A stretch of DNA of 64,000 bases, from positions 164,849 to 228,848 of the forward strand of contig PHAN01000003.1 of NCBI GenBank assembly GCA_002841695.1, written 5' to 3'. The notes below the pieces were generated by a model that saw nothing but the letters and a program-made list of their open reading frames with translations, was not told the origin of the DNA and searched no databases. Source of the stretch: Elusimicrobia bacterium HGW-Elusimicrobia-1 (GTDB lineage: Bacteria; Elusimicrobiota; Endomicrobiia; PHAN01). Each line of letters opens with the position of its first letter. The stretch's first letter is position 1. A program made the translations under genes and the position numbers. Below, piece by piece: positions 14,580 to 23,030 of the stretch.

Positions 14580-14608
14580 TTGACACGCCCCGACCAGATT
14601 TGTAGAAT
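14580..14608 (+). promoter_or_regulatory. sigma70 promoter TTGACA-17-TGn-TAGAAT
   Basis: ttgaca at 14580-14585, 17-nt spacer, tgtagaat at 14601-14608. It drives a ~110-nt unit ending at the 14690-14727 terminator. Confidence 0.5.
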
Positions 14609-14689
14609 TATCTCGTATGAAGTAAATGGTCATGCGGGGGTTGGATGAAAGTTTGTATGCTTTCGGGGAAAAACGGTTCAAAAAAATGA

Positions 14690-14727
14690 CAGCCCGTGCG
14701 GCTTTCTGCCGCCGCGGGCTTTTTTGG
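14690..14727 (+). terminator. rho-independent terminator (4th copy of the leader hairpin family)
   Basis: AGCCCGTGCGGC-TTTCT-GCCGCCGCGGGCT followed by TTTTTT. Sequence-similar to the hairpins at 4740-4778 and 8002-8040. Confidence 0.6.
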
Positions 14728-14827
14728 TTTACGGTTGAACCATGATTGGTTGGAGTATTGCACGGAAAGTAGCAGTTCGTCTTTGCTGCTTACGCGGATA
14801 GTATAGTATTTGTGTGGTGGTAATGGA

Positions 14828-15289
14828 ATGATAACAGCAGAATCAAAATTACGCGTTGCTGTAAAAACCCTTCAGAGTGCTAGAAAAAAACTCCACGCCG
14901 ATTTCCCAGAATGGAATTTCACTCTCGACGGCAAGCTTATTGGTGACATTGGCGAAGCATACGCAAAAGCACATTTTAGCCTTGTAAAAATAGATAGTAA
15001 TAGTAAAGCTCACGACTTTAAGGCGCCCGACGGACGTCTTGTACAGGTCAAAATTACCCAAAAAAAGACATTGGGACTGGGGATCTCTGCTCCTACCTTC
15101 GACTATTTTATAGCTCTTTGCTTGAGTGAAAATGGAGATTTCCAAGTCGTTTACAATGGCAAAGGTTCTAGAGTGTATAAGCGTAAAGGGCACCCCCCGA
15201 AAAAATCCATTTCTGTAATAAAACTGAAAGAATTAAATAAGCAGGTGGATAAATCGGAAACAATTCCCAGTAAGCAGAACACCAAATAA
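14828..15289 (+). CDS. small PD-(D/E)xK-like nuclease-fold protein (cargo gene A)
   Basis: 'GDIGEAYAKAHF' is a helix with a conserved Glu; 'AHDFKAPDGRLVQVKI' gives D...QVK, a PD-(D/E/Q)xK-like arrangement. Alternative start at 14810. Confidence 0.3.
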   Translation: MITAESKLRVAVKTLQSARKKLHADFPEWNFTLDGKLIGDIGEAYAKAHFSLVKIDSNSKAHDFKAPDGRLVQVKITQKKTLGLGISAPTFDYFIALCLSENGDFQVVYNGKGSRVYKRKGHPPKKSISVIKLKELNKQVDKSETIPSKQNTK

Positions 15290-15426
15290 GTAAATGTACC
15301 GGATACTCGTTCCTCGTGACGATGGTTATTGTATCAAGTGTCTATGAAAATAACTCTAAAGGTTATCGGAGATATGCTTGTATCTTTAATTTAGTTTGTG
15401 GCCGCGAACGATAACTATGTATTCAC

Positions 15427-16404
15427 ATGATGGCAATAATAACCATGCCGACTGATGAAGAGCTGGAGCAAGCAAATAGATTTCGCACCTATCTGAACTA
15501 TCTCAGTGCAATTTCTGATTTTCTCGGAGATGTTTACGCTCACCCGGAAAGTATTATCAGTCCGATAGTACAGACATCAGTATTCCAATCAATCCAAGGC
15601 GGGCGTAGCATAGACACCGGAAGAATGGCTGAGCTATTACGCAACGCGTGGTTCACAGAGATTCAAATGAGAATTTCTGCTCAGTATGATGAATTCGTTT
15701 CTTACTCCAACCATTGGATACCCGTTCAAGCTTATTACGCAAGCTATTTGGCCCTCCGCGCCTATTTCAATGCAAGCGGACAAACTGTTGGACGAGAGCA
15801 TGGTTCAAATCTTAAGGCGATTGCCGAGGAAATTAGTCGCCGACCGCTTTTATACCCTCAACCTTGGCGTGTGGTTTGTGCCGGTAATCCTGAAACTTCA
15901 GATTGTCAACTGCGCCATCTCCCGAATGATGTCACCGTCTCTCCAATTTCAAGTCTCATGTCAAGTTGGCGAGTTTCATTTTGGGATTCTTATGCTAAGT
16001 TTTTAAGAACTACACGCCTGCGCCATTTGCAAAAGCAATGCGATGATTGGAAGGAATCTAACAATCGCAAGCGTGTCTGCTCGAATGTCAAACGACGATT
16101 CATAGATAATTTATCTCCGACAACACTGTTCCATTGCCTTTATCGTTTACGTTTGCGCTCAAACTATTCCGATGCTGACTCGTTCCTTCTGTCTGTTGCC
16201 GGTTCTGCCGATGGTATATCTTTTCATGCCGCCTTGCGGAAAATTTGTTGGGGCACGCTCTTGATATTGGAAACTCTCACTGCCCGATATATCGGTAAGC
16301 TTGAATTTGAAAATATTGTCAATAGTTTCAGACGCTATGAACGTAGTGCGGTCTCTGATGAATTAATTGGCCTTCGATGGGAGAAGGTTCGTTCTCTGTG
16401 GTGA
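15427..16404 (+). CDS. hypothetical protein (cargo gene B), no recognisable motif
   Basis: 325-aa ORF in the AT-rich island with no identifiable domain. Confidence 0.4.
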   Translation: MMAIITMPTDEELEQANRFRTYLNYLSAISDFLGDVYAHPESIISPIVQTSVFQSIQGGRSIDTGRMAELLRNAWFTEIQMRISAQYDEFVSYSNHWIPVQAYYASYLALRAYFNASGQTVGREHGSNLKAIAEEISRRPLLYPQPWRVVCAGNPETSDCQLRHLPNDVTVSPISSLMSSWRVSFWDSYAKFLRTTRLRHLQKQCDDWKESNNRKRVCSNVKRRFIDNLSPTTLFHCLYRLRLRSNYSDADSFLLSVAGSADGISFHAALRKICWGTLLILETLTARYIGKLEFENIVNSFRRYERSAVSDELIGLRWEKVRSLW

Positions 16405-16502
16405 GATTTGCGCGTGCCGAGACCATTTAGAACTAAAGTTGTAATGATCAGGGTAAAGGTTATTGGGAACGCGATAGTAAACAAAGGAGGGTGATTACTA
16501 TT

Positions 16503-17291
16503 ATGATAGAATTATTGAAGCGTTGCGCTATGAATTATTCGACACTGTCTTGCTGCCATCCGCAACCCCATACGTGCGATTGTCCCTCCTGTTTCCACGA
16601 CGGTTTTCGTGGGGGAAAAGATATATATAATTGTCCCAAAAAGGTTAATTACTACGTCATAAATTATGGCCCATCCTTTGTCAGTGAAATCTATCATTAT
16701 TTAAGCAATTCTCAAATTCTTGAAAATAATTTCATGAACAAGAAAATAAAAATATTGTCATTAGGATGTGGTTTCGCCCCAGATTTTTTGGCTGCCACTA
16801 AGTATATTTCAGACAATGACTTATCAATGAGCATTGATTATCATGGAATAGATATGAACGATAGTTGGAAATCCGCAAGATATGAGCTCACAGGTGCCCG
16901 ATTTTCGACTGACGATGTAAGCGTGAATATCGATCTTTCGGGCTATGATATTGTGATAATAGGCAAATTGTTTTCAACGCTTATGAAAAATTCCCTTGGG
17001 GGCAAATTTCTTGACACGTTTAGATGGGCGGTATCAAGTCAACTTAAGAAAAGTGCTTTTGTTATTTTTAATGACATCAATAGTCGGAATAAGGGGCGGG
17101 ATGTATTTCATAACAGAGTGTGTGACCTTTTTACTAGCGTTCGTCAATATTATTGCGATGATCCTCCATACAAAGGCGCGAGTTGGATACCAATCCCAGA
17201 GAATCATATTGTTTGTAGTATTCCTATTGGTTTTGAGCACAGCCCGCTGAGAGAAATAAGACAAAGCGTATTTTTTGAGTATAAAAAATAA
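16503..17291 (+). CDS. Zn-ribbon + class-I SAM-methyltransferase-like protein (cargo gene C)
   Basis: N-terminal Cys cluster 'CCHPQPHTCDCPSCFH...CPKK'. 'KILSLGCGFAPDF' is Rossmann motif I (hh(D/E)hGxGxG); 'YHGIDMN' and 'DIVIIG' fit motifs II and IV. RBS 'aaaggagg'. The track start is GTG at 16491. Confidence 0.4.
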   Translation: MIELLKRCAMNYSTLSCCHPQPHTCDCPSCFHDGFRGGKDIYNCPKKVNYYVINYGPSFVSEIYHYLSNSQILENNFMNKKIKILSLGCGFAPDFLAATKYISDNDLSMSIDYHGIDMNDSWKSARYELTGARFSTDDVSVNIDLSGYDIVIIGKLFSTLMKNSLGGKFLDTFRWAVSSQLKKSAFVIFNDINSRNKGRDVFHNRVCDLFTSVRQYYCDDPPYKGASWIPIPENHIVCSIPIGFEHSPLREIRQSVFFEYKK

Positions 17292-17294
17292 CTT

Positions 17295-18230
17295 ATGATA
17301 ATAAGTGCCAGTCGGCGCACAGATATTCCCGCCTTTTATTCTGAATGGCTGTTTAATCGGTTTAGAGAGAGCTATTTGTTGGTGAGAAATCCCATGAATA
17401 TTCATCAGATAAGCCGTATTAATTTATCGCCACAGTTGATTGATTGTATCGTATTCTGGACAAAAAACCCAGCAGGAATGCTTAATAGATTGAACGAATT
17501 AAGGGGTTACGATTACTATTTTCAGTTTACGATTACCGGGTATGGTAAGAGTTTGGAGCCTAATGTGGCGGCACTCAATCAGAGGTTGGATATTTTTAAG
17601 ACTTTATCTGATAAAATAGGCAAAAAACGAGTAATTTGGCGTTATGACCCGATAATATTTTCAAACGATTTTGACGTTCAATATCACGTAAAAATGTTCA
17701 AGTATATCGCACAAGAGTTGGAAGGTAAAACCCAAAGGTGTGTTATTAGTTTCGTGGATTTTTATAAAAAAATACTGAAAAATATGTCATCAGTTGGACC
17801 GGCTAATTTCGATAATGCTTACTTGTTTGAAGTTGCAAATGCCCTGTCGAACGTTTCTTCGAGACATAATATAGAATTGACAAGTTGTGCTGAAGAAGTC
17901 GATCTTGCCAAATACGGGATATCCCATGGTAAGTGCATTGATGATAAACTGATCGAGGAAATCTTTAATATTCGATTAGATATTGCCAAAGATAAAACGC
18001 AAAGAGAAGAGTGCGGTTGTGTTGCCAGTATTGACATCGGTGCTTATAACACATGCCCCAACGGGTGTTTGTATTGTTACGCTAATTATGATATGAATAA
18101 GGTTCGGCATAACTATTCTTTGCATGACCCCGAGTCCCCACTCTTGTTTGGAGATATTGGGGCTAACGATAAAATAACAGAAAGAAAATTAAAAAGTTGT
18201 AAGGTGTATCAAAGGGGTTTGTTTTCTTAA
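17295..18230 (+). CDS. DUF1848-like protein with C-terminal Cys cluster (cargo gene D)
   Basis: The N-terminus 'MIISASRRTDIPAFYSEW' matches, as I recall it, the characteristic start of the DUF1848 family. The C-terminus 'CGCVASIDIGAYNTCPNGCLYCYAN' is a Cys-rich putative metal/Fe-S site. Starts 4 nt after gene C. Confidence 0.45.
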   Translation: MIISASRRTDIPAFYSEWLFNRFRESYLLVRNPMNIHQISRINLSPQLIDCIVFWTKNPAGMLNRLNELRGYDYYFQFTITGYGKSLEPNVAALNQRLDIFKTLSDKIGKKRVIWRYDPIIFSNDFDVQYHVKMFKYIAQELEGKTQRCVISFVDFYKKILKNMSSVGPANFDNAYLFEVANALSNVSSRHNIELTSCAEEVDLAKYGISHGKCIDDKLIEEIFNIRLDIAKDKTQREECGCVASIDIGAYNTCPNGCLYCYANYDMNKVRHNYSLHDPESPLLFGDIGANDKITERKLKSCKVYQRGLFS

Positions 18231-18297
18231 ATTTTTTTTTGACATCCCGCCGGAAAGTTCAATTTAAAGCCCCCCAAAAACGTCTCTTAAAAAACCC

Positions 18298-18326
18298 TTG
18301 ACTTCCGGTAGATTTTTTATTACAAT
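18298..18326 (+). promoter_or_regulatory. sigma70 promoter TTGACT-17-TACAAT followed by a palindromic operator-like site
   Basis: ttgact at 18298-18303, 17-nt spacer, tacaat at 18321-18326. Inverted repeat atacatgta-caaca-catgtatat at 18327-18350. Confidence 0.45.
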
Positions 18327-18382
18327 ATACATGTACAACACATGTATATGTAATTAATTAAACCCCATTGGGGGATTCTACC

Positions 18383-19324
18383 ATGAATGCGCAAAGATTA
18401 AAAAAGCGTTTACCTAGTTCAGATGAAACTCAACCGTCACAGAAGATTTGCCGGATCGTAGCCACGCCGGAAGCCGAAAAAGACCTTCGTCAAAATGTGG
18501 ATAGACGGATAGATGAACTGGTTAAACGTCGTAGTGCCCAAGCCGTTGATATCGATAAGGCGGCCGGAGAGCAAAAAACTATAAGCCCTAAAGATGAGGC
18601 CACTGTGGTCAAGAAAATCAAACAACTGAATGATAAGTATTTTGCCGCAAATATTATTGAACACACTGTATGTAAAGAGCGCCGTCTCGCCCTTGGTCAG
18701 GTAAAGAAGATAGCGGGGCTTACTCGACGTCAAATAATATACTGGCAGTCAGTAGATGCGATGTTTTTTGGGCAGGAGGGCGCTTATGACCCTCGGAGAT
18801 TTTCCATTGGCGATGTTATCAAGTTGATGATTATAAAAGAGATTAAGCAAAACACGGGCATACCGCCGAAAAGATTAAACAGGTTTGTCTCGTGGATTCA
18901 AAGATATAACATCGTCGACGCCCGTCTTCACGATTTTTCCGTCGGGCGGGATATTTTTCTTTATTCGGATTTAAAGTCAATCTGGTATTCCGGTCACGGC
19001 GTGGACGGTCGGGTCCCGCAGAAATGGGGAGATAAACCGATTGTCCTTATGCCGCTCAATGATATTTTCAAAAAAGTATTGCTTAATCCTGCGGTTTTCT
19101 CCGATAAGTTTCGAGTCGAGAAACAGGGCGAGCAGTTTGTTTATTTTATAAACGGCAAGAAGTTCGATTTTGCGTCGTATAAGAATCATCCGAACCCGGG
19201 CGGACTCAAATTAACACTTCAAAAATCCGACTTGCCTATAGTTTTCAACTATCGAGTAAAGAAATACGCACTTCATAGCACTGATGGCGGAGGCCTTGTA
19301 CTGAAAAACGCTGAGTCAAAATAG
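18383..19324 (+). CDS. hypothetical protein with MerR/excisionase-like HTH segment (cargo gene E)
   Basis: 'LGQVKKIAGLTRRQIIYWQSV' resembles a MerR-superfamily HTH. RBS 'ggggga' 7 nt upstream of the ATG. The track start is TTG at 18368. Confidence 0.4.
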   Translation: MNAQRLKKRLPSSDETQPSQKICRIVATPEAEKDLRQNVDRRIDELVKRRSAQAVDIDKAAGEQKTISPKDEATVVKKIKQLNDKYFAANIIEHTVCKERRLALGQVKKIAGLTRRQIIYWQSVDAMFFGQEGAYDPRRFSIGDVIKLMIIKEIKQNTGIPPKRLNRFVSWIQRYNIVDARLHDFSVGRDIFLYSDLKSIWYSGHGVDGRVPQKWGDKPIVLMPLNDIFKKVLLNPAVFSDKFRVEKQGEQFVYFINGKKFDFASYKNHPNPGGLKLTLQKSDLPIVFNYRVKKYALHSTDGGGLVLKNAESK

Positions 19325-19399
19325 AAGTCGAATAAAAATATTTCCAAACACTTTCTCTGTTCGTAATAACTAAACGGGAATCAGTCCCGTGGGTGTGAG

Positions 19400-19491: not shown

Positions 19492-19674
19492 ATGGCAAAG
19501 ATAGTAAAGCGTTTTGTCTGGAAGTATATAACAGTAGAGGTTATGCGACGCGGGAACGGCTGGCCCGTGGTCAGAAAAATCAGGGTTCCCACGATTGCAC
19601 GCGTCGCTTGGTACTGGAAGGTCGGCAAGCCGCCGCGATATTACCCTTACCACAGCCGCCGTCGTCGTCGGTAA
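19492..19674 (+). CDS. small basic hypothetical protein
   Basis: Strong RBS 'taaggagag' 6 nt upstream; 60 aa, Arg/Lys-rich. Confidence 0.35.
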   Translation: MAKIVKRFVWKYITVEVMRRGNGWPVVRKIRVPTIARVAWYWKVGKPPRYYPYHSRRRRR

Positions 19675-19718: not shown

Positions 19719-19901
19719 ATGGAAAGAAAACTACTAAAAGTCGCCGAGGCCGCGGAATATCTTGGCACGACGGAAGGCACGCTTTACGTCTGGGTTTGCA
19801 GGAAACGCATCCCTCATATAAAAATGGGCCGCAAGTTGATGTTTGACGTCTCGGATTTGGAGAAATGGATAGCATCGCAGAAAATCCCCGCGGAATCGTG
19901 A
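19719..19901 (+). CDS. AlpA/Xis-family excisionase-type HTH protein
   Basis: 'KVAEAAEYLGTTEGTLYVWVCRKRIPHIKMGRKLMFDVSDLEKWI' matches the phage excisionase/AlpA HTH_17 pattern. RBS 'aaaggag'. The track ORF starts at 19608. Confidence 0.6.
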   Translation: MERKLLKVAEAAEYLGTTEGTLYVWVCRKRIPHIKMGRKLMFDVSDLEKWIASQKIPAES

Positions 19902-19946: not shown

Positions 19947-21197
19947 TTGAGGGGGTATATTATGAGATTATTCAAAAAATGTTCTCATTGCCGGAGCCAG
20001 TTCGCGGCGACGAAGATAACCGCTGCCGCCGAAGCGGCCAAATGCCCCAAGTGCGGGGCGTCTCTTCGCGGTGCCCAGTGGTATATCGACTACTACGTGG
20101 GCTACGAGCGTAAGAGAGAGGCCGTCGGCACACAAAAGCGTTTCGCCGAGGAAGTCATAGCCAAGCGCCGCATCGAGATAAAAGAGGGGAAGTTCTTTGA
20201 CAGAAAAAAAGAGAGCGTGCACAGATTAAAAGAAATCCTCGACGACTTTCTGGCGTATTCCAAAACCAACAAGAAATCCTATGAGCGCGACATCGGACTC
20301 GTCAAGCAGCTTCTGACTTACTTCGACGGCTCCAAGCGCCTTGAGGCGGTAACGCCGATCCTCATCGAACAATACAAAGGCAAACGCCTCAACGCCGACG
20401 GAAGAAAGCCCGCGACGGTAAACCGCGAACTCGCCTGCCTCAAGTGCGCTTTCAACTGGGCGATAAAAAACGCCAAGGCGTCGGCGAACCCCGTGCGAAG
20501 CGTCAAACTCTTGAAAGAAAACAATATGCGCTTGCGCTATCTCTCGCAAGAAGAAATCGGACGGCTTCTTAACGCCTGTCCGACGACGATAAGGCGCATC
20601 GTGACCGCCGCGCTTCACACCGGAATGCGCCTGGGGGAAATACTTCCTCTCAAATGGGAAGACATTGATTTCGCTCAGAATATCATCATCCTCAAAAATA
20701 CCAAAAGCGGCCGGATGAGAGAAATCCCGATAAACGGGGTTTTGCGCAAAACGCTCAATGAGTGCCGCAAAAACACGGATGAAGTCCACGTCTTCTGCAA
20801 CGAATCGGGCGTGCCTTATCGCAGTATCAATAGCATGTTCCAGCGCATAATCAAGAAAGCGGGCATTGCCGATTTCCGGTTCCACGATTTGCGCCATACG
20901 GCGGCATCATACATGGTCATGTTGGGCATACAACTTGCCACCGTAAGGGAGATTTTGGGCCATCAGAGCATCAATATGACGCTCAGGTATGCCCACCTGT
21001 CTCAGGAGCACAAACTCACGGCAATGGAGATGTTGGGGACGCGACTCGACACCCTTTCGACACCCCGACCCCCCGATGGCCAAAACACCCGAAAAGAGGG
21101 TGATGAGAAAAGTATTGATATTTCAGCATTTTTGAGTAATCTGGAGAGGTCGCCTAGTGGTTTAGGGCGGCGGTTTGCTAAACCGCTGTCCCGCTAA
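19947..21197 (+). CDS. int: tyrosine recombinase (phage-type integrase), C-terminal tail reads into tRNA-Ser
   Basis: Catalytic-domain motifs 'RLGEILPLKWEDIDF', 'HDLRHTAASYMVMLG' and 'LGHQSINMTLRYAHL'. N-terminal zinc ribbon (CSHCRS...CPKCG). The last ~18 codons (stop at 21195-21197) are tRNA sequence. Confidence 0.8.
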   Translation: MRGYIMRLFKKCSHCRSQFAATKITAAAEAAKCPKCGASLRGAQWYIDYYVGYERKREAVGTQKRFAEEVIAKRRIEIKEGKFFDRKKESVHRLKEILDDFLAYSKTNKKSYERDIGLVKQLLTYFDGSKRLEAVTPILIEQYKGKRLNADGRKPATVNRELACLKCAFNWAIKNAKASANPVRSVKLLKENNMRLRYLSQEEIGRLLNACPTTIRRIVTAALHTGMRLGEILPLKWEDIDFAQNIIILKNTKSGRMREIPINGVLRKTLNECRKNTDEVHVFCNESGVPYRSINSMFQRIIKKAGIADFRFHDLRHTAASYMVMLGIQLATVREILGHQSINMTLRYAHLSQEHKLTAMEMLGTRLDTLSTPRPPDGQNTRKEGDEKSIDISAFLSNLERSPSGLGRRFAKPLSR

Positions 21198-21231
21198 AGC
21201 GGGACCGGGGGTTCGAATCCCCCCCTCTCCG
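21143..21231 (+). tRNA. tRNA-Ser (anticodon GCU), long variable arm
   Basis: Acceptor GGAGAGG/CCTCTCC. Anticodon loop TT-GCT-AA in stem GCGGCGG/ACCGCT. Long variable arm GTCCCGCTAAAGCGGGAC. T-arm GGGGGTTCGAATCCCCC. Discriminator G. Confidence 0.8.
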
Positions 21232-21486
21232 ATACCTTTTGAACAGACAGAAAGCTTTTTGGTAAGTCGAGTAAGGGCAGTTTGGGCTCTTTCGGAGACA
21301 AAATATACACCACGCCGTCATTTAAGCAAGACGCTCCGCATCTTTACCTGAAAGCCGCGGACGTCTTCGGCAACGTCGCAATCAGCGGCAAAAATTGACG
21401 GATTTCGCCGCATCTCTCTATAAAATCCAAATCCAATCGGCGTTCGATGCCCCCGTCGGCGCCTTGATAATTTCAAAGGGGGCACA

Positions 21487-22552: not shown

Positions 22553-22765
22553 ATGGAAAAACAACTGGGTAAATTGATAAGCAAGTTGTCCGAAGTCAAC
22601 ATCACGCTTTGGCATGAGGAAGATAAGGCCCGCGTCGACGATGACCATCAAATCGCCGCGGCCAAAAGAAACATCGACAAATTGAACCAGCAGAGAAATG
22701 ACCTGATTGAACAAATTGATGAGTGCGTATTAAGCATATACAGGGAGGGAAAAAGCAATGGCTGA
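22553..22765 (+). CDS. small DUF4254-like protein (paralog a)
   Basis: 70 aa, paralogous to the next ORF ([17 protein letters not shown]...[11 protein letters not shown] vs [18 protein letters not shown]...[11 protein letters not shown]). I recall this family as associated with GT9 heptosyltransferase genes. Confidence 0.4.
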
Positions 22766-23030
22766 AACTGTGGGGAGTTTGGTCGACAAAATAACTATCG
22801 CCGACTTAAAAATATTTCATATGGGCGAACAAACTAAACGCAACGATGCCGGCGCCGAGCATATTATAAAATGCAAACAGCGGATAGATATTATGGTTTT
22901 GCAAAGGGATGACTTGATTAATGAGTTGAATCAACTTGTGAAAGATATTTTTTCCGGGGAATATAAGCCGAAAATGTATCGGCAATTCAAGATGTATAAC
23001 GACCCGAAATACGGGATAAAAACAAAATAA
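22758..23030 (+). CDS. small DUF4254-like protein (paralog b)
   Basis: See previous entry; the two ORFs overlap by 8 nt. Confidence 0.4.

Follow-up and report, generated by a model that had tools for sequence, protein, structure and literature searches.

Do the co-directional genes that lie together in an AT-rich islet, next to an integrase gene and a tRNA gene, form one system? The question is raised by a stretch of 64,000 nucleotides from Elusimicrobia bacterium HGW-Elusimicrobia-1 (assembly GCA_002841695.1, contig PHAN01000003.1, positions 164,849 to 228,848), which we call the window and in which five plus-strand open reading frames (ORFs) between 14.8 and 19.3 kb encode the proteins that we named P1 to P5 (Table 1). 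A preliminary description, made from the letters of the window, had pointed to these co-directional genes, to their AT-richness and to the excisionase/integrase/tRNA-Ser junction beside them, and had proposed that the whole islet is a modification-plus-effector module of a restriction-modification (R-M)-like or anti-phage kind. As a description this was right in substance. The genes lie where it placed them, the GC content at 16–18 kb is 0.385 (the lowest of the 2-kb bins) against a mean of 0.509 for the window, and the junction is recognised by HTH_17/excise and Phage_integrase matches and by an ARAGORN tRNA prediction. Its statement that no characterised defence system is matched also holds, the PADLOC matches of the islet proteins being RTasDUF1848, C3a159, a weak mREase_II and nothing else. 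The finding is real, yet it is narrower than and different from the earlier proposal: P3, a protein with an S-adenosylmethionine (SAM)-dependent methyltransferase fold, and P4, a DUF1848 protein, are the sole genuine multi-gene unit of the islet, and this unit is found in many bacterial phyla.

We scanned one genome per species with an alignment of P3 and obtained 17 loci, which belong to Bacteriovoracaceae, Endomicrobiaceae, Alkalispirochaeta, Shewanella, Bacillota, Ruminiclostridium, Sideroxydans, Cloacimonadota, Desulfobacteraceae, Riflebacteria, Elusimicrobium, Helicobacter, Ignavibacterium, Chlorobiaceae and Methylomirabilis. A DUF1848 gene lies directly downstream of the P3 relative in all 20 loci with readable downstream sequence, and no P3 relative without an adjacent DUF1848 gene was seen among the loci with downstream sequence. 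The same order is found in the chromosome of Aliarcobacter butzleri and in distant P3-like members (P0405 and P0486). When metagenome loci were seeded with DUF1848, an abutting upstream P3-like gene was found in 36 of 80 by iterated profile search; in IMG/VR loci seeded in the same way, a P3-like partner was present in 17 of 68, all among the closer relatives of P4. The intergenic distance lies between -11 and +17 nt in 61 of 65 non-redundant pairs, with a median of 2 nt and a 4-nt overlap in 19. P3 and P4 are separated by 3 nt in the window, and the co-translation that had been suggested for them is thus upheld across phyla. The tight spacing ascribed to the islet as a whole applies to this pair alone, since the remaining gaps among P1 to P5 measure 98–152 nt.

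We then looked for a third conserved partner. In a clustering of all neighbouring ORFs, the P3 and P4 clusters alone recur. A Pfam census of 150 neighbours gave 192 families with a top count of four, and a PADLOC census gave no third partner. P1, P2 and P5 are absent from the 17 genome loci with P3 relatives, neither P1 nor P5 occurs in any of the 171 DUF1848 loci, and P2 appeared solely in loci that had been fetched with P2 homologues. The homologues of P2 occupy unrelated settings, either beside an N6_N4 methyltransferase and a ResIII helicase or beside type IV secretion system or antitoxin genes, and without P1, P3 or P4. Because the neighbour clustering, the censuses, the absence of P1 and P5 and the contexts of P2 leave P3-P4 alone recurrent, the islet is a mosaic. 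The single module of four or five genes does not stand, and the co-occurrence expected of it is borne out for P3 and P4 and not for P1, P2 and P5. This serves as a warning that a shared direction in an AT-rich islet need not mean one system.

A three-gene arrangement, in which an ordinary class I methyltransferase gene lies directly upstream of the P3-DUF1848 pair, was observed in four loci (neighbour cluster 8). These include L005 7097-7918, from a metagenome-assembled genome (MAG) of Bacillota, and L007 7043-7840, from Ruminiclostridium hungatei. The L005 copy, the only one scanned, matches Methyltransf_11. Another contig with such a pair also carries an additional DUF1848 gene, which is shorter (269 aa) and is preceded by a Macro-domain gene (L021 6584-7701).

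The dependence between the two genes is not symmetrical. Of 130 non-redundant DUF1848 loci with enough upstream sequence for a partner, 56 have one and 74 do not; some of the latter, for example L052 and L083, carry truncated P3-like remnants. Since about 57% of the DUF1848 genes lack a P3-like partner, P3 depends on P4 and not the reverse. The mean pairwise identity is 53% for P4 versus 25% for P3. P4 is a strongly constrained enzyme that can do without P3, and P3 is a rapidly evolving addition that requires P4. The pairing status is shared with the nearest P4 neighbour in 69% of cases versus a chance expectation of 51%, which indicates moderate clustering. This asymmetry is the inverse of the logic of R-M or toxin-antidote systems, in which the methylase may stand alone and the effector may not; P3-P4 does not follow that logic. 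Immediately before unpaired DUF1848 genes, a NUDIX hydrolase gene is found in four loci and a gene for a protein with an Arr-type rifampin ADP-ribosyltransferase domain in L069.

P3 shows the features of a class I SAM-dependent methyltransferase, namely a Rossmann-like fold, a glycine-rich motif I (SxGCG) and an acidic motif II (YxGxD). The P3 family comprises about 130 clusters of about 262 aa, in which both motifs and the cysteines C18, C27 and C44 are invariant. In 59 non-redundant P3-like proteins linked to DUF1848, the SAM motifs are conserved at 98–100% and the N-terminal cysteines at 73–88%. Alignment of the homologues favours ATG 16503 over GTG 16491 as the start codon. P3 had been described as a Zn-ribbon methyltransferase-like protein. 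The methyltransferase fold stands, and the region of the supposed Zn ribbon, which holds the N-terminal Cys cluster, is predicted to be helical; the cluster could bind Zn or Fe-S. P3 has no match in Pfam and none to a DNA-methyltransferase family, and sequence searches of the PDB with P3, P4 and the P3 profile gave no significant match. The top three structural neighbours of P3 are mt-SAF1/Rsm22, METTL17 and Bud23, all of them methyltransferase-fold proteins that bind small-subunit rRNA, and the structures closest to it are those of methyltransferases that bind rRNA or act on small molecules, not of DNA methyltransferases. We considered P3 as an R-M DNA methyltransferase (N6_N4_Mtase, DNA_methylase or MethyltransfD12) and rejected this assignment on the missing family match, on the nearest structures and on the DPPY string of the window P3, which is not conserved among the homologues.

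A profile search of 1.84 billion representatives gave 723 P3-like clusters, most of 260–310 aa, and some of them have unannotated N-terminal extensions of 80–190 aa. Extensions of about 170–190 aa are present in L123 4569-5999 and in P0461, P0481, P0368 and P0388. One N-terminal extension scored 26 bits with RnlA_toxin (RNase LS), under the cut-off of 27.

The identification of P4 as a DUF1848 protein was confirmed over the full length of the family profile (PF08902, 1.6e-107; 359.7 bits versus a cut-off of 30.5; residues 2-263 on profile positions 1-262), and P4 also matches RTasDUF1848 of PADLOC (2.7e-53). In 35 DUF1848 sequences the mean column identity is 63%, and seven cysteines (C198, C214, C240, C242, C254, C258 and C261) are invariant. 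The last three form C254-PNG-C258-LY-C261, a canonical radical-SAM CX3CXYC motif at residues 254-261 of 311. The CX3CX2C spacing and the aromatic residue before the third cysteine are as in radical-SAM enzymes, but the motif is C-terminal and does not follow strand 1. The weak matches of P4 to the Pfam Radical_SAM and NCBIfam PA0069 models, given below, fall exactly on this stretch. The four further invariant cysteines are available for a second cluster. The structure model of P4 is confident and shows an enzyme barrel, with an apparent partial TIM-barrel core and no nuclease fold. Most likely, though not decisively, P4 is a non-canonical radical-SAM enzyme. The role of effector that had been given to the DUF1848 protein does not suit a radical-SAM-like enzyme that is frequently found without the methyltransferase; self-protection would lead one to expect the opposite.

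The DUF1848 family comprises at least 8000 clusters at 90% identity and ranges over many bacterial phyla, gut metagenomes, prophage-type contigs, and jumbo-phage and giant-virus contigs. More distant DUF1848 genes without a partner were observed in L126, L147, L159, L167 and L170-L172, which comprise IMG/VR contigs as large as jumbo phages (256-545 kb) and two contigs of giant-virus MAGs. A separate DUF1848 subfamily, about 277 aa long, is often found on viral contigs of 30-60 kb.

We then investigated the neighbourhoods of the pair and of DUF1848 genes in other genomes. They contain toxin-antitoxin genes (RelB/YafQ, HigB and ParE), defence genes (RloB with AAA_21 of the AbiLi type, PARIS AriA, BrxC/DUF6079 and a TIR-NACHT-TPR protein), Type II and Type III methyltransferases and transposases, as well as tyrosine integrases in 13 loci. 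The pair is frequently located in variable regions alongside defence genes.

On balance, we lean towards reading P3-P4 as a translationally coupled, mobile module of two SAM-dependent enzymes for nucleic-acid modification or repair, with the rest of the islet as a mosaic of independent cargo. The islet would then consist of an independently mobile P1, P2, the P3-P4 pair and P5 as a probable regulator, beside the tRNA-Ser-adjacent xis and int genes. P3 and P4 are probably physically associated. P4 would bind a [4Fe-4S] cluster through its C-terminal motif and reductively cleave SAM, and the resulting 5'-deoxyadenosyl radical would attack a nucleic acid at a base or a sugar; as the substrate, DNA is slightly more likely than rRNA or tRNA. 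SPL-like radical-SAM enzymes with DNA as substrate have precedents in spore photoproduct lyase (SPL) itself and in gp53 of phage M6 (PMC8989533). P3, for its part, would bind SAM, and would then either carry out a consecutive methylation of that substrate or target or modulate P4. The role would be that of an accessory, horizontally transferred modification or repair activity rather than of a methylase protecting against a nuclease. The data establish the gene pair with its conservation and coupling, the folds, the motifs and the one-sided dependence; radical-SAM chemistry, a nucleic-acid substrate and a conflict-related role are what we infer for the pair.

Several observations weigh against this reading. 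The match of P4 to Pfam Radical_SAM (PF04055) reaches 13.8 bits versus a cut-off of 29.5 and spans only residues 251-274, and the top Foldseek hits of P4 in the PDB are generic TIM barrels (template-modelling scores of at most 0.32) instead of radical-SAM enzymes. In a mirror-tree test, the pairwise distances of P3 and of P4 correlate only weakly (Pearson 0.30, Spearman 0.06). The binding of small-subunit rRNA by the three best structural neighbours of P3 speaks for an RNA target. The defence genes near DUF1848 are a list without a background rate for comparison. The literature that we found on DUF1848 (PF08902/IPR014998), DUF6998, C3a159 and radical-SAM defence pairs holds a mention of UG25 alone, and no biochemical or phenotypic data on DUF1848 or P3. 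UG25 (Mestre et al. 2022, PMC9226505), in which DUF1848 is the partner of a UG/Abi reverse transcriptase that carries an N-terminal methyltransferase domain, is itself unvalidated, and its defence prediction is inconclusive according to the same authors (PMC9226505).

UG25 is among the closest known arrangements. In both cases a methyltransferase-type domain is genetically coupled to DUF1848, and P4 fits the PADLOC model that was built from the UG25 partner. This likeness lies in the association of the genes. UG25 and P3-P4 share the DUF1848 partner, but P3 is a free-standing protein of 262 aa, and the UG/Abi reverse transcriptase (RT) with an N-terminal methyltransferase domain has no counterpart in the window or in the pairs examined. 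By Pfam, no RT is present in seven proteins of the window or among the neighbours of the pair; the large ORFs adjoining DUF1848 include no methyltransferase-RT fusion of the UG25 kind, and the best 150 of the 723 P3-like clusters include no protein as long as such a fusion. The best description of P3-P4 is that of a variant, free-standing and RT-less, of the association between a methyltransferase and DUF1848 that is known from UG25. A more specific reading is possible, and we put it forward tentatively: P3-P4 may be a hitherto overlooked, self-contained and mobile RT-less system related to UG25, in which a rearranged radical-SAM enzyme acts together with a Cys-cluster methyltransferase to add or take away a covalent nucleic-acid mark in phage-host or mobile-element conflict. 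P4 might, in the same tentative sense, be circularly rearranged, with a C-terminal cluster motif plus an auxiliary cluster. If this is true, DUF1848 would represent a new class of nucleic-acid-directed radical-SAM enzyme.

The structural neighbours of P3 also suggest a mobile rRNA or tRNA modification pair, comparable to Cfr/RlmN with an rRNA methyltransferase, that would confer, for example, resistance to an antibiotic or toxin. Weak matches to the Rmt 16S rRNA methyltransferase (E 0.04) and, in a family member, to Rsm22 (E 0.0045) point in the same direction; the strong conservation of P4, with 53-63% identity between phyla, would suit a substrate that is itself conserved everywhere, and resistance-type neighbours (Arr-ms, MatE and GNAT) occur occasionally. 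METTL17/Rsm22 proteins hold a [4Fe-4S] cluster by four cysteines located C-terminal to the methyltransferase core, C333-C404 in METTL17 (PMC11046306). However, every one of the sequence matches is far under the family cut-off, and the window P3 has no Pfam match to Rsm22 and does not belong to the Rsm22/METTL17 family (PF09243). The cysteines of P3 are N-terminal and those of METTL17 are C-terminal; because they sit on opposite sides of the core, the likeness extends to fold and theme but not to family membership. Rsm22/METTL17 are assembly factors of the mitoribosomal small subunit, whereas P3 is encoded by a mobile bacterial accessory gene tied to DUF1848. In addition, DUF1848 is the partner of an RT fusion in UG25, and no resistance phenotype is known. 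We consider an rRNA or tRNA modification pair unlikely, although it merits attention after the readings above.

Less probable still is that P4 is a stand-alone DNA-repair enzyme similar to SPL, with P3 as an optional accessory and with an incidental presence in the islet that has no part in genetic conflict. Many DUF1848 members are annotated as 'DNA repair photolyase' by JGI, the family is widespread, and it occurs on contigs of jumbo-phage size and on giant-virus contigs, which is also true of repair genes; some loci have NUDIX and Macro genes upstream, and a RecQ gene adjoins the pair in two. SPL and gp53 of phage M6 are SPL-like radical-SAM enzymes that act on DNA (PMC8989533), but the motif of P4 is C-terminal and P4 has four extra invariant cysteines. 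P4 has no family-level sequence match to SPL: the match to NCBIfam rSAM_PA0069 scores 13.2 bits versus a cut-off of 360 and falls on the CX3CX2C stretch, and neither the family match nor the N-terminal motif of the SPL/COG1533 SplB-PA0069 group is present. The lead of SPL over the other radical-SAM matches of P4 is negligible, and SPL was not recovered by Foldseek. RecQ adjacency is limited to 2 of 177 loci, and a general link to RecQ was rejected. The sporadic distribution, the mobile and defence-related neighbours and the fast-evolving obligate partner are also atypical of housekeeping repair. The RecQ genes of the two loci (L175 5914-7734 and L176 3835-5670) converge on DUF1848, and their proteins are just 40% identical.

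The proposal that P1 to P5 make up one R-M-like or anti-phage system, in which P3 methylates the host DNA and the DUF1848 protein, P1 or both attack unmodified DNA, is now very improbable. It drew on the co-directional genes in AT-rich cargo adjoining xis and int, on the methyltransferase-like nature of P3, on the defence genes near the pair in other genomes and on a partial match of P1 to the PADLOC model of a methyl-directed restriction enzyme (mREase_II, 1.9e-7). A Type II R-M system likewise has a methyltransferase-fold gene beside a second enzyme gene in mobile, AT-rich DNA. However, the co-occurrence data given above, namely P1 and P5 in none of the DUF1848 loci and P2 homologues in unrelated contexts, largely refute the five-gene model, and the longer gaps and differing third-position GC contents divide the islet into separate units. 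P3 lacks the motifs and families of DNA methyltransferases, and P4 has the fold of an enzyme barrel, with no nuclease fold present in the pair. The dependence is inverted as well: the methyltransferase was never seen alone and its DUF1848 partner often is (74 of 130 loci), whereas a toxic effector would not persist without the protecting methylase. Equally improbable is a pair for tailoring a small molecule or peptide or for making a cofactor, like the radical-SAM enzymes and O- or C-methyltransferases of natural-product clusters, since no biosynthetic context, which would have counted against the preliminary proposal too, recurs around the pair, no precursor peptide, transporter or tailoring gene is shared, the pair lies in islands with integrases, toxin-antitoxin and defence genes, and the very high conservation of P4 across phyla is unusual in secondary metabolism.

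DUF1848 is a very large, strongly conserved and uncharacterised family, for which the pairing and the motif now give a testable handle. Three points are added here: in about 43% of its close members an obligate partner with a methyltransferase fold is translationally coupled to the DUF1848 gene, this P3-type partner was never seen alone, and a canonical radical-SAM motif occupies a non-canonical, C-terminal position. If the substrate is DNA or RNA, these proteins would form a new class beside the few radical-SAM enzymes acting on DNA, SPL and phage M6 gp53, and the DUF1848 component of the UG25 RT systems would be explained.

P1 and P2 are independent cargo outside the conserved P3-P4 pair. 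P1 belongs to DUF6998 (Pfam, 5.2e-33) and matches phrog_35225, a PHROG of unassigned function (1.2e-24), with no sequence match in the PDB. It may be PD-(D/E)xK-like: a PD-x5-QVK string is visible in its sequence, and the mREase_II match is partial. Neither P1 nor the close P3 subfamily was found in IMG/VR. P2 has no match in Pfam, PADLOC, NCBIfam or PHROG; it is not the orphan it was taken for, as 111 clusters of homologues of about 325 aa exist. The P2 profile gave a marginal match to a HEPN-domain structure in the PDB (E 0.058), and P2 may belong to some other defence-type context. A P2 homologue of 68% identity lies between an unannotated 348-aa gene and genes for an N6_N4 DNA methylase and a ResIII helicase (L026 3041-8488).

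P5 is probably a regulator of the element, unlinked to P3-P4. Its description as MerR-like was not sustained, since the scores lie under the model cut-offs (14.1 bits versus 21.6 for Pfam MerR_1, E 0.051; 22.6 bits versus 140 for an NCBIfam TnrA-like model, 8.8e-5); a PDB match to TnrA is also weak (E 0.008). We rejected membership in the MerR family, and a weak helix-turn-helix (HTH) resemblance alone remains. The sigma70-like promoter and the palindrome noted upstream of P5 are both present in the sequence: the promoter-like site TTGACT-17-TACAAT at 18298-18326 agrees with the consensus in 10 of 12 positions, and the palindrome ATATACATGT-N5-ACATGTATAT lies immediately downstream of it.

Table 1. 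Features of the islet and of its junction with the tRNA gene (positions in the window)
Feature	Position	Strand	Description
P1	14828..15289	+	DUF6998 protein, possibly PD-(D/E)xK-like; ORF opens with TTG 14810, first ATG 14828
P2	15427..16404	+	325 aa, unnamed family
P3	16503..17291	+	262 aa, SAM-methyltransferase fold, N-terminal helical Cys cluster
P4	17295..18230	+	311 aa, DUF1848, predicted non-canonical radical-SAM-type enzyme
Promoter-like site and palindromic candidate operator upstream of P5	18298..18350	+	Read from sequence
P5	18368/18383-19324	+	HTH protein, weak MerR/TnrA-like motif at residues ~104-170
Terminator-like element after P5	19400..19453	+	Long hairpin, then T run: CCGACAGAGC...GCTCTGTCGG TTTTT
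Small basic ORF	19492-19674		Between P5 and the excisionase gene
Excisionase-type HTH_17 gene	19719..19901	+	Pfam HTH_17 1.1e-15; TIGR01764 excise 4e-12
Tyrosine integrase	19947..21197	+	Pfam Phage_integrase 4e-33; phrog_1 integrase 3.7e-75
tRNA-Ser(GCT)	21142..21232	+	ARAGORN; Rfam tRNA 59.5 bits

The GC content at third codon positions (GC3) is 0.36-0.45 in P1 to P5, 0.65 in the integrase gene and 0.61 in a heptosyltransferase gene beyond the tRNA. The integrase and excisionase genes (0.59-0.65) are host-like in this respect, unlike the cargo. A tyrosine integrase and an excisionase gene adjoin the tRNA gene, as in an integrative element that targets a tRNA. No exact repeat of at least 10 nt and no significant local alignment of 21091-21300 across the window was found that would represent an attachment-site (att) direct repeat, and exact 10-mers, repeat finding and local alignment gave no attL/attR tRNA repeats bounding the islet in the window. 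Relative to the tRNA, the cargo is on the 5' side, in contrast to the usual 3' side. The integrase ORF overlaps tRNA-Ser(GCT) on the same strand by 56 nt, because its first stop codon lies 56 nt within the tRNA. The ATG of the excisionase gene is preceded by an AAGGAG ribosome-binding site (RBS). Just upstream of it, the small ORF encodes a very basic protein of 60 aa that ends in RRRRR and also has a strong AAGGAG RBS.

The left flank, taken for a secretion locus in the preliminary description, contains a secreted S8 subtilase and an unannotated 311-aa protein and does not correspond to a defined secretion system. Between the host gene and P1, at 14580-14728, lies the best promoter-like site of the region (TTGACA-17-TAGAAT, 11/12), followed by a structured stretch of 117 nt (-42.5 kcal/mol, z -3.4) that ends in a GC-rich hairpin and a T run. 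It has no Rfam match, the tRNA being the only feature that passed in an Rfam scan of 13.5-22.5 kb, and it could be a small RNA, or a leader together with the terminator of the upstream gene. The right flank beyond the tRNA holds lipopolysaccharide heptosyltransferase genes. Between two of these, DUF4254 is split over overlapping ORFs at 22553-22765 (profile positions 3-62) and 22758-23030 (profile positions 73-143), which suggests a frameshifted gene or a sequencing error.

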